Origin: a virus
Taxonomy: Duplodnaviria > Heunggongvirae > Uroviricota > Caudoviricetes
Virus record (IMG/VR): IMGVR_UViG_2698536484_000001
Span: 1-23,777 of that record
Direction: 5' to 3' (one strand)
DNA length: 23,777 nucleotides
Position numbers and translations under genes: made by a program. The notes under the pieces are model-generated. The model was not told where the DNA came from. It saw nothing but the letters and a program-made list of their open reading frames with translations, and searched no databases. Shown here in pieces: positions 2,969 to 23,605 of the stretch; the first letter of the stretch is position 1, and every line of letters begins with the position of its first letter.

Positions 2969-3720
2969 CAGTTTACTCCGTCGGTATTGCTTCCACCGCG
3001 CTGAACACCACCATGAGTGTGCGTATCATCGATTGGCTTGCCGTTAGCCTTCACGCTACCCAAAAACTCAACAGCACCAGTGATTTTTGAAGCCACACCA
3101 GAAACAACAGACCCCACCATGCCTCCCATCCAGGTTAACAGGCCATGAATGGTTACTTTCTCAGAAAAATCAGCCAGAGGGGCAACCACATCAAGGCCCC
3201 CCGGAGCGACAATTTTAATTTTCCTGGTATCAGGATTAAGCTCAAAATAGGTGCTGCCGTCATCACTACGCAACTGTGTGGCACTGGTATTAATACCGCT
3301 AATCTTCCTTGCCTGCGACTGGGGACCGACAATACAAAACGCATCCGATAAATCATGCATTCTGTCATCGACCGGCTCCTGTATCCCGCCACTCTGCCAC
3401 CAGAAATCAATACAACGATCGGCAAAAATCACCAAACATTCATCACCGGCTTTAACTGGAAACGTTAGCGTACAGCCTCCGCCACGCGGGAATACCACTG
3501 GCACATCCACCAGCAATGGGTAATTTTTGGTAATGCGGTTGCCGTCGTTATCAATTTCAACGTAACGGATAGCAGGCTGTACAACCGCCGTCACCGCATC
3601 AGGAGCGAATGACTGAACAATGCCAGGCAAGGCGACACGGATCTGGTTCTTTGTTGTTTCCCGTTCAGATTTAAATGTTTCGGCAAGGTCGCCGCTGCGG
3701 GTCTGGTCAGATACTGCCAT
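2968..3720 (-). CDS. Baseplate spike / assembly protein V-like (Mu gp45-like)
   Basis: 250-aa ORF; C-terminal ...DDTHTHGGVQRGGSNTDGVN resembles the His-rich apex (HxH..GG) of P2 gpV-type spikes; GGAG Shine-Dalgarno 8 nt upstream of ATG at 3720. Confidence 0.55.
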   Translation of the reverse strand: MAVSDQTRSGDLAETFKSERETTKNQIRVALPGIVQSFAPDAVTAVVQPAIRYVEIDNDGNRITKNYPLLVDVPVVFPRGGGCTLTFPVKAGDECLVIFADRCIDFWWQSGGIQEPVDDRMHDLSDAFCIVGPQSQARKISGINTSATQLRSDDGSTYFELNPDTRKIKIVAPGGLDVVAPLADFSEKVTIHGLLTWMGGMVGSVVSGVASKITGAVEFLGSVKANGKPIDDTHTHGGVQRGGSNTDGVN

Positions 3721-3739
3721 TTAGTAGGCTCCAGAAAGC

Positions 3740-7392: not shown

Positions 7393-9377
7393 TAACCCAC
7401 CCTCACCTGATTACTTCGCATGACCTGAGCATTTGCAGACTGTTGCCGACGTGCAACCTCATTACCGACAGCGTGCGGATCTCCGCCACCGTAAATATGG
7501 TAGGTATTTTGCTGGTTAACCTCTGTCACTTTGCCACTAATTCCCGCCACGGCAGCCTTATTAATCAGCTCTCGAGAATAGATATTTCTTCCATTCTCAT
7601 GCTGGATAATGCTGCTCATCAATGCTGACATGGTTTGCGGATCGCTCATATTCAGGGCAGCCCGGGGATCCACTCCCAGTCGTTGCGATACAGCCCTGAT
7701 ATACGCGGTTGTGTTGTTATTATCAGACGCAGGTGCCCAGGTAGAGATAATTTTCTCCACACTGTTTATTCCCCGTCCGGCGTACAGCATTAACTGACGA
7801 GCAAGAGCCCGTAATCCATCAAAAGCGGTTTCAAATCTGGCAAATCGCCCGCCCGGTCGTTCAAGAGAAGCCCCCGCCTGACCAGCAAAATTAAGGTTTC
7901 CCGGATTGTTATTCCGTTCTCCTCGCTTCGTAGCCTGTGCATGTTGTTCCGGCTCAGCACCTGGAATATCTGACTGAATATTTGCGCCTTTTACGGTATG
8001 AGGATTACGACCAAAATCGGTATCAATGCCAAGCCAGCGCAATGAATCTCCAATATTTTGTTTCGTGTAATCCCAGGATGACTTCGCACTGGCACCAATA
8101 TTTTCGCGATCGGAGTACAAATAAGCAGCATAAGCCATCCAGCCTTTTAACCATGGAGGTACCGGCAAACCAGATATTTTCCCGAAAGCCCCCAGAACCC
8201 TGGATACCCAGACACCCGCGATGAATGTACCGAGGATTTCCAGTGCATTTTGCCAGCCGCCAACACCATCTTTTAGTTCCAGAAGGTGATCACGAAGCCA
8301 GGTGATCGCATCCTTCGCTTTATCTATTGCCGGTTGCCATTTTTCCCAGTCGATAAGACTGTTACCGCCTTCTTTCCATGTTTTGTAGTCTTCCCACAAG
8401 AGACCGAGAGCCACGATCAGACCGGTAATCAGCCCTATAGGTGACATCCAGAAAGTAGAGTTAAGTATCCGCATGGCGACAACCAGACCGCCGATAACCT
8501 CTATCAGGGTTTTCGTTTCGGCATCCAGTTTCCCCCACCACTCGATGATATCTCCGACACCATCGACTATCCGAAATGCTACCCGCCCGACTATCTCACC
8601 CAGCCAGAGGATCCCCTTTATGACCTTTGTGATGGTGACTTCAATTTTGGGAAAATTTTCAATTATCTTTTTGCGCAGGTTATCAATCTGCCCCGCCAGT
8701 CCGCCCGCAAGATTCGATCCGATTTTGTCCCGCGCCATCCCGGCCATTTCACCGAGCGATTTCAGCGAGGTCATAAACCGGTTTGACGATAAGGCAGCCT
8801 GATCGGCATTAAATCCGATCGCTTTCACCATTTCTGAATACTGAGCGCTGAACTGCCCCACTCCGCGACGCATAGCCATCAGGGTATTTTCGTCAATGCC
8901 CAGCATCTGCGCATACTGGTTAGCCCGGTAATACGGCATACCGCTGAGCTTCTGGCCTACACCTGTAAAAATAGCGGCCATGTCACGCATGTTGCCGCTG
9001 GCATCACGGGTCTGTACGCCCAGGCGATTCAGGAAGCCTTCCGCCCCGGGATTGTTACGAATAAACCGGGAGAGGCTTTCCAGAGAAGATCGCGCAGCGT
9101 CCACGCTGCCGCCAACCTGCGAAACCGCATAGCCAATAGACTGAATTCCCTGGACTGTCGCGCCGGTGCGCTGTGACGCCCAGTAAAGATTATCCAGACC
9201 GGAGGCGATCTTAGCCGTAAAGGCCACCACGGACAGCGCAGCTCCTTCAACAGCCAGCCCCATTTTGATGACATTTGCAGTTGTACCGGCGAGGACAGAA
9301 CCGAACTTTTTCGCTCCTGCATCATCCACACTGAAGCCAAGCGAGACGAGGAAATCTTTAATAGTTTCAGCGTTCAT
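7392..9377 (-). CDS. Tail tape measure protein
   Basis: Long ORF after the chaperone pair; track ORF starts at a TTG at 9398, but the first ATG (9377-9375, MNAETIKDFLVSLGF...) is preceded by GGAGAGAGG and is the likelier start. Middle region has hydrophobic helix-like segments (ILWLGEIVGRVAF..., IGGLVVAMRIL..., IGLITGLIVALGLLW) typical of tape measure proteins. Confidence 0.75.
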   Translation of the reverse strand: MNAETIKDFLVSLGFSVDDAGAKKFGSVLAGTTANVIKMGLAVEGAALSVVAFTAKIASGLDNLYWASQRTGATVQGIQSIGYAVSQVGGSVDAARSSLESLSRFIRNNPGAEGFLNRLGVQTRDASGNMRDMAAIFTGVGQKLSGMPYYRANQYAQMLGIDENTLMAMRRGVGQFSAQYSEMVKAIGFNADQAALSSNRFMTSLKSLGEMAGMARDKIGSNLAGGLAGQIDNLRKKIIENFPKIEVTITKVIKGILWLGEIVGRVAFRIVDGVGDIIEWWGKLDAETKTLIEVIGGLVVAMRILNSTFWMSPIGLITGLIVALGLLWEDYKTWKEGGNSLIDWEKWQPAIDKAKDAITWLRDHLLELKDGVGGWQNALEILGTFIAGVWVSRVLGAFGKISGLPVPPWLKGWMAYAAYLYSDRENIGASAKSSWDYTKQNIGDSLRWLGIDTDFGRNPHTVKGANIQSDIPGAEPEQHAQATKRGERNNNPGNLNFAGQAGASLERPGGRFARFETAFDGLRALARQLMLYAGRGINSVEKIISTWAPASDNNNTTAYIRAVSQRLGVDPRAALNMSDPQTMSALMSSIIQHENGRNIYSRELINKAAVAGISGKVTEVNQQNTYHIYGGGDPHAVGNEVARRQQSANAQVMRSNQVRVG

Positions 9378-20758: not shown

Positions 20759-21283
20759 TTACCGGGACTGTTCTATTTGTCGGACACCAGCCAACTGGTT
20801 ATTCGCCTTCTCGATGGCAGCCAACAATGGGTTAATCCACAGAACAGCCTGGCAATATGTCAACGTTCTGGTGGTAGTGGCACGATCACCGGCTGAGTCA
20901 ATGTCCCCGGAATCGGCGTGCAATGCGCTGGCGCGTAAACGGTTCGCGTAGTTGAGCAACCCGACAGCAATATCAACAGGAACAGGGAAATCACAGTTCT
21001 TTTCACGGAGCAGAACCTCACGGTATTTGATGACTGTCTTCTCGTGACCGATGTCGACCAGAGAATTTAATCGGCTTGCGTTTTCTGCTATCTGGTTAAA
21101 ACGATTGAAGTTTAATGCCTGATTAGCTATCACTTTCCCTTGATATTCAGCTTCACCTTCCGCTTTATCAGCCCGCAACTTTTCTGCCTGATACTTGCTG
21201 TGGTAATGGTTTGCAGACCAGACGAGCGCCCCAAAGGCAGAGAAGAAAAATGCCGCGATGACAATCTTATAAGTCAGCTTCAT
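20759..21283 (-). CDS. Rz: Rz-like i-spanin
   Basis: 174-aa ORF overlapping the endolysin 3' end; N-terminal transmembrane segment (IVIAAFFFSAFGALVW) followed by WSANHY (compare lambda Rz WAVNHY) and a coiled-coil-like region; contains an embedded +1 lipoprotein ORF. Confidence 0.75.
   Translation of the reverse strand: MKLTYKIVIAAFFFSAFGALVWSANHYHSKYQAEKLRADKAEGEAEYQGKVIANQALNFNRFNQIAENASRLNSLVDIGHEKTVIKYREVLLREKNCDFPVPVDIAVGLLNYANRLRASALHADSGDIDSAGDRATTTRTLTYCQAVLWINPLLAAIEKANNQLAGVRQIEQSR
20860..21006 (-). CDS. Rz1: Rz1-like o-spanin lipoprotein embedded in Rz (+1 frame)
   Basis: Hand-translated +1 frame inside Rz: GTG start at 21006-21004 (GAGG 9 nt upstream), MKRTVISLFLLILLSGC-STTRTVYAPAHCTPIPGTLTQPVIVPLPPER, stop TGA 20862-20860. 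Signal peptide with LSGC lipobox and a Pro-rich mature part with a second Cys, as in lambda Rz1. There is no internal ATG in Rz, so a GTG start is required; 48 aa is too short to appear in the ORF track. Confidence 0.65.
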   Translation of the reverse strand: MKRTVISLFLLILLSGCSTTRTVYAPAHCTPIPGTLTQPVIVPLPPER

Positions 21284-21746: not shown

Positions 21747-22106
21747 TTACTCCTTAGAGCCACCAAACTTGTTACCGATTACTCGCATTGCAGCCCCACG
21801 AATAGCATCGACACCGATCAGCCCAACACCACCACCAATGGCAACAGAAAGCGATTTAGGCCATCCGACATACTCAAGAGCGGATGCAAAAGTCAGCGTC
21901 AGAGCACCACAGAGCAAAATCTCAAGCGTTTTTCGTTTCCAGCCGCCGCCACCGCCAAAATAGGCAATGCGCAAGCCAGCCATAACAATTGACATAACCA
22001 CTGCGCCCAACGGCGTATCTCCACGCCACCAACTTTGTAAGAGTTCCAGTAAGTCAGGCCAGGAATGAGGAGCATTGTGCATTTTCATACTTCCCACCTC
22101 CGCCAT
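21747..22106 (-). CDS. S: Class I holin (lambda S family); probable true start at 22088
   Basis: Three predicted TM segments and a charged C-terminus; alignable by eye with lambda S (RIAYFGGGGGWKRKTLEILLCGALTL vs lambda [26 protein letters not shown]). Track ORF begins MAEVGS-MKMH, but the first six codons encode the Shine-Dalgarno GGAGGTGGG, so the real starts are probably Met7 (22088) and Met9 (22082), an M-K-M dual start like lambda S107/S105. Confidence 0.8.
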   Translation of the reverse strand: MAEVGSMKMHNAPHSWPDLLELLQSWWRGDTPLGAVVMSIVMAGLRIAYFGGGGGWKRKTLEILLCGALTLTFASALEYVGWPKSLSVAIGGGVGLIGVDAIRGAAMRVIGNKFGGSKE

Positions 22107-22533
22107 TACGGGGTGTTGTTGAAAGGCGGGCCCTGCGTATACGCCCGTAGGATTGGGTTATGAGCCGTCCTTCGGTGGGCCCTGAATACAAAAAAAGTTC
22201 GCCATAGCGAACCTTGTTAAATTTGTTAAAAAAGGAGGTTATTTAACATAATGTACGTTATAGGAACCACACGATCCCCGCTCGCAATAGATTTGCGATG
22301 AAAGGCCTATTTAATCAACTTAAGTGGTCCAGAATGACGAAATTCGAGTGAATAAAAGGTGCATAAAAAAGGGCAAAAACTGCATAGCGTTTTTTCGCAG
22401 CGAAAGCCCTGTTTTATTAACTTTTCCCCAGAATGGGGCAATAAAAAAGGCCCCCTTGCGGAAGCCTCTTCGTGATGAACTGTTTTCAACAGATATCAGG
22501 CTAATCGGCTTTTTGGAATTCCACAACTATTTT
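22107..22533 (-). promoter_or_regulatory. Late regulatory intergenic region (candidate late promoter, Q-utilisation site, leader)
   Basis: 427-bp non-coding gap between the 113-aa gene and the holin, the canonical place for the Q-dependent late promoter; contains several GC stems with U tracts (GGGGC-cuuuuuuauu-GCCCC, plus 22435-22454; CCCC-auucu-GGGG) and a 10-bp palindrome GCGTATACGC (22135-22144). Exact -35/-10 elements could not be assigned. Confidence 0.4.
22190..22212 (-). terminator. tR'-like intrinsic terminator upstream of the holin
   Basis: Minus strand reads GUUCGC-uaug-GCGAAC followed by UUUUUUU: 6-bp stem (plus 22197-22212), 4-nt loop, 7-U tract, about 85-100 nt upstream of the holin start, analogous to lambda tR' downstream of pR'. 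Confidence 0.4.
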
Positions 22534-22875
22534 TTATCTTACCTTGATGCCTGATGCCGTCAGATGTTTACGACAGTCCTGAATACCTTCGTTATAACCC
22601 GCATCGTAGAAGCTATCCGGCTTTGCCTTCAGCGCAGGAAGCGTAACGCTGGTAGCTCTTCGTTCGGCCAGAACACCTGCCTGAAAGAGTGTCCACATCA
22701 ACTGAACTGCTGAATCACAGTAAGTAACATCTTCACTGTACAATTCTCGTTCAATCCTGATGCCAAGTTGAGCCTTCATTGATGCGCCAATATTACCTTT
22801 GACCTGCAACGACAGGTCTGGGTACCTCTGTTCCATGAAGCTTTCAAATCTGTTGCGAACGCTGATCAGAGCCAT
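22534..22875 (-). CDS. Hypothetical protein (113 aa) between Q and the lysis cassette
   Basis: ORF with AAGGGAA 6 nt upstream of ATG at 22875; no family recognised; occupies the Q-to-S slot where lambdoid phages often carry morons. Confidence 0.45.
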   Translation of the reverse strand: MALISVRNRFESFMEQRYPDLSLQVKGNIGASMKAQLGIRIERELYSEDVTYCDSAVQLMWTLFQAGVLAERRATSVTLPALKAKPDSFYDAGYNEGIQDCRKHLTASGIKVR

Positions 22876-22906
22876 CTGGTTCCCTTACGTGATTGATTGC
22901 TGGATA

Positions 22907-23374: not shown

Positions 23375-23605
23375 TCAATACTCGTTGAATGTCAGGTGGC
23401 CGCTAACACTGACGTTTGGCCCGTCAGATAACACAAGCTGGAAATTGTCGTCGCAAACAGAGCAGCCGAGGTCAATAACTACCGTTTTGTCGTGTTTATG
23501 CGCTCGCATGGCGACATCGCGAATAAACACGCTGTTACTAGCGCAGCGTGGGCAGGTAATTTCGTTATTTCCGTCGATATGATTTTTTAATCCTGAAACT
23601 TTCAT
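23375..23605 (-). CDS. Small hypothetical protein with two CxxC pairs (possible zinc ribbon)
   Basis: 76-aa ORF upstream of Q containing CPRC and CSVC (CxxC-x25-CxxC); function unknown. Confidence 0.4.
   Translation of the reverse strand: MKVSGLKNHIDGNNEITCPRCASNSVFIRDVAMRAHKHDKTVVIDLGCSVCDDNFQLVLSDGPNVSVSGHLTFNEY

Follow-up and report, generated by a model that had tools for sequence, protein, structure and literature searches.

A small accessory gene of the phiTE_015 family between the antiterminator gene Q and the inferred late promoter of an Escherichia coli prophage

Phage genomes often carry small extra genes, and their positions relative to the regulatory switches are of interest. In lambda, the nin genes are non-essential delayed-early genes located between P and Q, and their expression from the early rightward operon precedes the action of Q. 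The moron of HK97/HK022-type phages is a gene that lies between a promoter and a terminator of its own and is expressed from the prophage. In phages whose antiterminator belongs to PF06530, the Q21/Q933W family, Q is part of a cassette with the order Q, pR′, pause element, terminator and late genes (10.1101/651190). In the annotated record of 933W, the end of Q is overlapped by pR′; qut and a terminator come next, and another terminator is found about 180 nt beyond the first; stx is found in this record after pR′, the two terminators and tRNAs. Here, we describe how a reading frame of 113 codons (hereafter the ORF) located between Q and the holin gene compares with these systems. The window, that is, the whole stretch of 23,777 nt that was analysed, matches a prophage of E. 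coli O55:H7 DEC5E with 100% identity.

On its minus strand, the window begins this region with a 76-aa zinc-ribbon ORF, which is followed by Q and the ORF; about 430 non-coding nt then precede the holin gene, the endolysin gene, Rz/Rz1, TerS and TerL (Table 1), and the structural genes further on are myovirus-like. Since genes for a tail sheath, a baseplate and a tape measure are present, the host element is, by its gene content, a myovirus-type prophage, and it is equipped with a lambdoid-style Q-lysis cassette. The stop codon of Q is separated from the start of the ORF by 31 nt. The ORF reads on the minus strand; its position, its length and its exact amino acid sequence agree with the original prediction, as do its good Shine-Dalgarno sequence (AAGGGA, 5 nt before the ATG) and its location between Q and holin, with a PF06530 protein encoded upstream and a PF05106 protein downstream.

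Table 1. Features of the Q-to-holin region of the window, listed from Q to the holin gene.
Feature	Position	Strand	Basis and remarks
Q antiterminator, 140 aa	22907..23329	minus	PF06530, E 5e-42; phrog_79; Q21/Q933W family
Shine-Dalgarno AAGGGA	22881..22886	minus	5 nt 5′ of the ORF ATG; direct read of the sequence
113-aa ORF	22534..22875	minus	ATG start; PHROG 343 / PF26207 member; identical to RefSeq WP_001174014.1
-35 region GTTGTGGAATTCCAAA of inferred pR′	22512..22527	minus	No variation among the loci of this Q subtype
Inferred pR′ -10, TAGCCT	22498..22503	minus	17 nt after the -35; alignment with relatives and 933W
Terminator T1	22438..22471	minus	12-bp stem, -17.1 kcal/mol, U-run (fold)
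T1-T2 spacer, ~220 nt	22216..22437	minus	Nearly invariant across prophages with different Q alleles
Terminator T2	22184..22215	minus	9-bp stem, -10.4 kcal/mol, U7; before holin, as in 933W
Lambda-S-type holin	21747..22088	minus	PF05106, 1.2e-27; RefSeq start 22088; Met-Lys-Met dual start

Several small features are found in this neighbourhood. The 76-aa ORF just 5′ of Q (23375-23605, minus strand) has two CxxC pairs in a zinc-ribbon-like manner and no family match above threshold; its position is occupied by unrelated ORFs of 96 and 139 aa in the sibling prophages L004 and L005, and it is therefore another variable slot. The longest reading frame of the holin gene starts at 22106, 18 nt 5′ of the RefSeq start on the minus strand, and the leader from T2 to this gene (22107-22190, minus strand), a GC-rich stretch in which GGGCCC recurs, may fold over the ribosome-binding site. 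Inside the Rz-like spanin gene (phrog_214, 20759-21283, minus strand), an Rz1-like ORF (20860-21021) is encoded out of frame, and its product contains a lipobox-like LLSGCS. A small 'HEAT repeat domain' ORF is present on the opposite strand between TerS and TerL in two sibling E. coli prophages (L001, 6310-6516; L003, 5328-5540) and after the lysis genes in a Rahnella prophage (L007, 10355-10564); the window has no such ORF, its TerS and TerL abutting each other (20125/20122).

Is the ORF a functional gene? Homologues of 106-113 aa are found in Escherichia, Rahnella, Yersinia and metagenomes, the length and motifs are kept across genera, and purifying selection is strong, with a dN/dS of 0.05-0.18 at a dS of about 1.3, which is saturating. 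As judged by these comparisons, it is a genuine gene and no chance reading frame, because homologues occur in several genera and dN/dS is low. The product has a computed mass of 12.7 kDa and a computed pI of 8.6. Neither a signal peptide nor a transmembrane segment was found in it, the N-terminus being hydrophilic and the 19-residue Kyte-Doolittle maximum being 0.94, which agrees with the earlier remark that no signal peptide is visible. The predicted fold is compact, consisting of three helices and short strands (pLDDT 78, alignment A6), and no solved relative of this fold was detected: a profile search for relatives of solved structure was empty, and a single-sequence search gave only a chance match (E 0.42). 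Searches of Pfam-A, NCBIfam and folds detected no enzyme family, nuclease, helix-turn-helix (HTH) or other DNA-binding family or fold, and those of Pfam-A, NCBIfam and PADLOC detected no toxin or defence family.

The profile and structure searches proposed along with the original prediction thus gave no solved structural relative, and they did give a family, PF26207 / PHROG 343, named the 'phiTE_015 family' in RefSeq, so that the protein can no longer be called unassignable. The phrog_343 match covers residues 5-112 of the product (E 2.8e-18), and the same PHROG is matched by all of the 23 aligned relatives. PF26207 (Phage_phiTE_015) is precomputed on 14/14 homologue clusters, although flagged as 'weak' at individual loci, and the identical protein WP_001174014.1 bears the RefSeq name 'phiTE_015 family protein'. 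When a diverse profile of the ORF family was compared by hhalign with single members, the probability was 96.8% for HK022 gp59 (HK022_59), 96.5% for ST64T gp32 (ST64Tp32, 'similar to D3 orf41') and 90.2% for phiTE gp015 (phiTE_015; E 1.5e-6); with a shallower profile, it was only 13.9% for phiTE_015. The kinship to phiTE_015 is a distant one, because BLASTP alone is blind to it, a pairwise comparison of the ORF product with phiTE_015 having given no similarity. On these profile comparisons, membership of the ORF in PF26207 / PHROG 343 is real but distant. In the copy of Pfam-A that was searched, the ORF product and 23/23 relatives were unmatched, the PF26207 model being probably absent from that copy; the product was likewise unmatched in NCBIfam release 20, and the NCBI name may stem from a rule outside that release.

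When 1.84 billion representatives were searched exhaustively with a profile, only 16 matches were obtained, several of them truncated copies or repeat artefacts, and the close subfamily of the ORF is therefore small. It is marked by an invariant motif, P-x-x-x-Y-D-A-G-Y-N-E-G (also given as P-D-x-F-Y-D-A-G-Y-N-E-G), and is, as far as profiles and motifs tell, a divergent branch of the phiTE_015 / D3-Orf41 / HK022-gp59 superfamily. Members of PF26207 / PHROG 343, including phiTE gp015, Pseudomonas phage D3 Orf41, HK022 gp59 and ST64T gp32, are small proteins (86-135 aa) encoded by accessory genes, like the ORF. They share a helix with R-x-x-F-E at the N-terminus; a central helix that contains W leads into (V/I)-x-L-P, and the C-terminal part has the pattern (G)YN-x-(A/G)-I-x-x-C...L...G-(I/V)-K-V. 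Unlike the classic members, the ORF subfamily has a variable, disordered insert of 25 aa (residues 26-50), the extended invariant motif of the YDAGYNEG type and a site at the Q/pR′ junction. The genes for HK022 gp59 and ST64T gp32 are located in the nin region, among homologues of NinB, RusA and NinX, 2.5-3 kb before Q. That for phiTE gp015 is in the early/replication region of a virulent myovirus, beside the genes for DNA polymerase and primase, with no Q annotated nearby, and Pseudomonas phages of about 92 kb are included in the tblastn match lists. No functional work on phiTE_015, PF26207, WP_001174014 or D3 orf41 was found in the literature.

Some other matches were set aside. The match to phrog_15831, labelled 'head closure', is confined to the C-terminal 53 residues, the gene is not part of the structural module, and the label is outweighed by phrog_343, which every member matches over its full length. 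The phrog_37465 match covers the N-terminus only, and this family represents E. coli copies that are frameshifted or truncated (P0021, P0022 and P0025). An apparent Q-ORF fusion (P0019) sits in a decayed prophage remnant, and two repeat proteins from the profile search (P0023 and P0027) are low-complexity false positives.

Where does late transcription start relative to the ORF? The 16-nt element GTTGTGGAATTCCAAA, in which the -35 hexamer TTGTGG (22526-22521) is joined by the first part of the spacer, aligns with pR′ as annotated in 933W, and the -10 of the window aligns with TAATCT, TAGCCT or TATTGT of its relatives and with TATCAT of the 933W pR′. In five distant loci encoding the same Q recognition helix, Q is followed by an ORF homologue (about 45% identical) and, within 8-12 nt, by GTTGTGGAATTCCAAA; after a further 17 nt there is a TAnnnT hexamer, and behind it a GC hairpin that has a T-run; this array is found 8-12 nt after the ORF stop in every type-I locus. 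Among the best 80 Q-centred IMG/VR loci, 12 have the ORF and then the motif, and 10 have no ORF and carry the motif at the end of Q, between -22 and +21 nt from the Q stop. The alignment of 933W with the window and related loci extends through the -35, the spacer, the -10 and the terminator; T1 aligns with the first 933W terminator, and every sibling has a hairpin of its own at the T1 position. Because this segment follows Q directly in the relatives lacking the ORF and aligns with the pR′ of 933W, pR′ has been placed 3′ of the ORF: most likely, pR′ of the window is at 22498-22527, T1 is the equivalent of tR′, and the ORF is wedged between Q and pR′. We infer these promoter and terminator assignments from comparison and consensus.

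An alignment of four siblings is near-invariant from the T-run of T1 to the start of holin, and the differences between phages are found in the stem of T1 and in the approximately 65 nt before it. This pre-T1 segment follows the Q allele: it is the same in L004, whose Q is 89% identical, and differs in L003 and L005, whose Q proteins (44% and 29%) diverge in the C-terminal HTH region. The T1-T2 spacer contains no credible ORF and has no Rfam match, and at the gathering score no RNA family was found by Rfam in the whole Q-to-holin interval. TATAAC and TTGATT in the stretch between T1 and T2 were considered as candidates for pR′ and were overruled by the comparative footprint and the 933W alignment. 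A 16-mer scan of genome contigs gave chance matches in unrelated phyla only. The only promoter-like site above the scan threshold in the interval is TTGTTA-18-CATAAT on the plus strand (22223-22252), which is antisense to the late leader and directed towards the ORF and Q.

The leader downstream of pR′ is a point of departure. In the window, it is about 9 nt shorter than those of the relatives and lacks TAAGAGTGGTTAC, which is conserved in 933W and these relatives. The alignment of 933W with related loci, the window excepted, continues through a leader GATAAGAGTGGTTAC..GCCACG, which is near-identical in 933W, L196, L182, L007 and L162 and missing from the window (22472-22497). Thus, the cassette of the window has Q, -35 and -10 hexamers and a terminator homologous to those of 933W, with the pause/leader element of the relatives missing. 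Since TAAGAGTGGTTAC is lacking, the late switch of this prophage may work differently or be impaired; that is, its pause or Q-loading signal may be different or defective.

With pR′ and T1 both located 3′ of it, the ORF would belong to the transcription unit of Q and lie outside the slot after pR′. The gap between Q and the ORF is between -1 and 31 nt in all intact type-I loci, the stop and start codons overlapping by one base in L008, and no conserved promoter was found at the junction among the type-I loci compared. Because of this tight gap and the lack of a conserved junction promoter, co-transcription with Q is favoured, the Q transcript most likely having the ORF as its final gene. A weak promoter-like sequence, TTGCGT-16-CATAAT (score 8/12), overlaps the Q stop in the window. 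It could allow independent expression of the ORF, and as a promoter of the ORF's own it was rejected, not being conserved in relatives. From the position 5′ of pR′ and the tight gap to Q, we infer nin-like delayed-early expression, before Q acts. T1 is counted as a part of the pR′ cassette rather than as the ORF's own terminator, because it is also present in relatives without the ORF. Compared with a moron, then, the ORF does not come with a promoter and a terminator of its own, and it is moron-like in being present in some genomes and absent from the same site in close relatives.

The distribution of the ORF is patchy. Of 5,426 complete E. coli genomes, 62 have the full ORF, each with one copy on the chromosome, and the adjacent lysis cassette matches 1,240 E. 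coli genomes. In the sibling comparison, three classes can be told apart among the prophages that have the Q-holin interval in common: those with Q and the ORF; one with the same Q and a remnant of the ORF, in which the Shine-Dalgarno sequence and ATGG are joined out of frame to the last approximately 55 nt (L004); and those without any gene in the Q-to-holin interval (L003 and L005). Frameshifted copies are found in L152, L153, L161 and FDAARGOS_1059, and as P0021, P0022 and P0025. Given this occurrence in 62/5,426 genomes, its absence or remnant in siblings and its frameshifted copies, the ORF is, on genome comparison, accessory and often lost. The expectation of accessory cargo was thus borne out by the absent, deleted or frameshifted copies in sibling prophages, and the related prophages do not show it to be a conserved core late gene of known function present in all relatives. 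In the prophage of E. coli O121 (NZ_CP119441.1), an IS1A is inserted in the Q-to-holin interval, and the prophage is otherwise 99.3-99.5% identical.

More distant homologues, with an identity of 35-51%, adjoin antiterminator-type genes of other kinds: Q-lambda-type genes of PF03589 in L006 (phage Pm34), L157, L158 and L160, DUF1133 genes in L164-L170 and another PF06530 subtype in L162. In the loci inspected (L006, L158, L160, L162 and L165), Q is followed by a promoter and a terminator, and the ORF comes next, with another terminator after it. The segment after Q in the Q-lambda-type loci aligns with lambda pR′ at the -35, AA-TTGG, the -10 and the ATGG/GTGG pause motif, and the promoter of L162 is built in the same way as the type-I motif region. 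Consequently, by the comparison of these loci, the ORF subfamily occupies both sides of the pR′-tR′ cassette, and because the homologues of distant loci come after pR′-tR′, expression timing would not be uniform across the family. The subfamily with the YDAGYNEG motif adjoins an antiterminator gene at 35 of the 36 IMG/VR loci and at 6/6 other loci examined; at the sole IMG/VR exception, the homologue follows HicAB. In the Q-lambda-type contig L160, tRNA genes for Gln-TTG, Met-CAT and Gly-TCC are located 3′ of the ORF homologue and its terminator (3423-3724), a layout that recalls the tRNA cluster between pR′ and stx of 933W. In L008, which carries an ORF homologue, a weak Pfam match to an Acb2/Tad1-hairpin (anti-CBASS/Thoeris sponge) is found just after the lysis cassette (7666-7938). 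Hairpins bounding the ORF in L008, L160, L162, L165 and L196, phages otherwise unrelated, have alike stems (CCTCGC-loop-GCGGGG with a T-run), and these common stems could serve as microhomology for shuffling of the gene around the Q/pR′ junction.

What does the product do? Overall, the ORF probably encodes an accessory, cytoplasmic, nin-like binding protein that is co-transcribed with Q and has a role in the lytic cycle. It would be a small soluble protein of the cytoplasm, translated from a Q-ORF transcript that forms the end of the early/middle operon and terminates at T1. It would be made when Q is made, just before the late genes are switched on, and the ORF would be neither a Q-dependent late gene nor a conversion gene expressed from the prophage. 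The protein would act stoichiometrically in lytic growth and use the conserved YDAGYNEG motif, residues 90-97 at the start of helix 3, to bind a macromolecule of the host or the phage, as a dispensable helper in host takeover or anti-defence or of the nin-like kind. An enzyme, a toxin or a structural protein is unlikely, and the binding mechanism, which is what one assumes by default for small phage accessory proteins, is put forward with modest confidence. That the ORF is a decaying relic without function, merely annotated as a gene, is hardly credible: frameshifted and truncated copies and a deletion remnant do occur in E. coli prophages, but the window carries an intact copy, length and motifs have been kept from genus to genus, and dN/dS is 0.05-0.18 even at a saturating dS. 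A conversion or toxin-type moron, that is, cargo expressed in the prophage or late and altering the host phenotype as stx does, also seems very improbable. The ORF is accessory and physically between Q and holin, its distant homologues come first after pR′-tR′, at one locus with tRNA genes as in Stx phages, and leaky read-through of tR′ might give low expression in a lysogen. Against this, the ORF of the window is upstream of pR′, has no conserved promoter of its own, encodes neither a signal peptide nor a transmembrane segment and has no match among toxin or defence families; members of the superfamily are found in nin regions and in phiTE, a virulent phage, with matches also in the ~92-kb Pseudomonas phages, and prophage copies are often frameshifted or deleted, which is unexpected for a gene beneficial to the host. 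It is mainly the position before pR′, the lack of an export signal, the relatives in phiTE and the frequent decay in prophages that disfavour this reading.

Another question is whether the constant company of Q reflects function. The product might be a dedicated modulator of the Q late switch that tunes Q loading, sigma-dependent pausing or read-through via RNA polymerase, sigma70 or NusA. Adjacency to Q is indeed kept across PF06530, PF03589 and DUF1133 antiterminators and on either side of pR′-tR′, while the replication and lysis modules vary. Nevertheless, many phages of the same Q subtype lack the ORF, the homologues do not co-vary with the Q family (identity is 35-51% whichever Q adjoins), the HK022 and ST64T members are 2.5-3 kb from Q, phiTE has no Q annotated nearby, and one member follows HicAB. 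Moreover, the Q/pR′ junction is a known mosaic boundary, and therefore the adjacency may reflect recombination hot spots; we regard such a modulator as unlikely. Somewhat more speculative still is the idea that the YDAGYNEG subfamily is an unrecognised component of the middle-to-late switch, independent of the Q family and acting on sigma70-paused RNA polymerase or NusA, although action on machinery common to all Q types would explain its repeated recruitment to the Q/pR′ junction. As doubtful as the dedicated modulator is a helper of DNA metabolism (recombination, replication or repair) comparable to NinB/Orf, NinG/Rap and RusA. It would accord with the relatives among NinB, RusA and NinX homologues in HK022 and ST64T, with the phiTE member beside the DNA polymerase and primase genes and with the mildly basic pI of 8.6, but the searches detected neither a nuclease nor an HTH nor any other DNA-binding family or fold, and the nin-block neighbourhood is weak evidence because nin blocks are functionally heterogeneous. 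An accessory binding protein made together with Q is retained as the preferred reading.

By its family assignment, the ORF is a further member of a catalogued, uncharacterised family of phage proteins. A candidate virulence or conversion gene can be struck off for the window, in which nothing occupies the true stx-type slot behind the late terminators, and the late promoter and terminators of a widespread myovirus-type prophage of E. coli have been mapped by homology to 933W. The phrase 'between Q and holin' covers two transcriptionally different compartments, one before and the other after pR′. The original prediction of cargo in this interval thus stands as to an accessory gene and falls as to the classic toxin slot: the stx slot of 933W is 3′ of pR′-tR′, the ORF is 5′ of the inferred pR′, and the hint at a toxin or conversion gene is countered by the missing export signal, the missing conserved promoter and the relatives in virulent phiTE. 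The consistent link of the PF26207 subfamily with the Q/pR′ junction provides a starting point for the function of a large family.

How, then, does this locus compare with the known systems? With cargo of the stx type it has little in common: an exported, toxic or surface-altering product is not indicated by any signal peptide, transmembrane segment, or toxin or defence family, and a position 3′ of pR′ and tR′ is taken only by the distant homologues near other Q types. The ORF is like the morons in being an extra gene that is absent in close relatives and followed by a terminator, and unlike them in having no conserved promoter of its own and in that its terminator belongs to the pR′ cassette. 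With the nin-region genes of lambda it shares small size, dispensability and mosaic occurrence, and its relatives in HK022 and ST64T are in nin blocks; no sequence relation to any named Nin protein was found, and the nin genes precede Q, whereas the ORF follows it. 933W and the window are alike in a Q of PF06530, in the layout of the -35 and -10 and in the first terminator, with a second terminator about 200 nt on. They differ in the leader, which contains the conserved TAAGAGTGGTTAC in 933W and is devoid of it in the window, and in the slot after the terminators, which holds tRNAs and stx in 933W and is empty in the window. Finally, pR′ overlaps the end of Q in 933W, whereas in the window a gene appears to have been inserted between the two.
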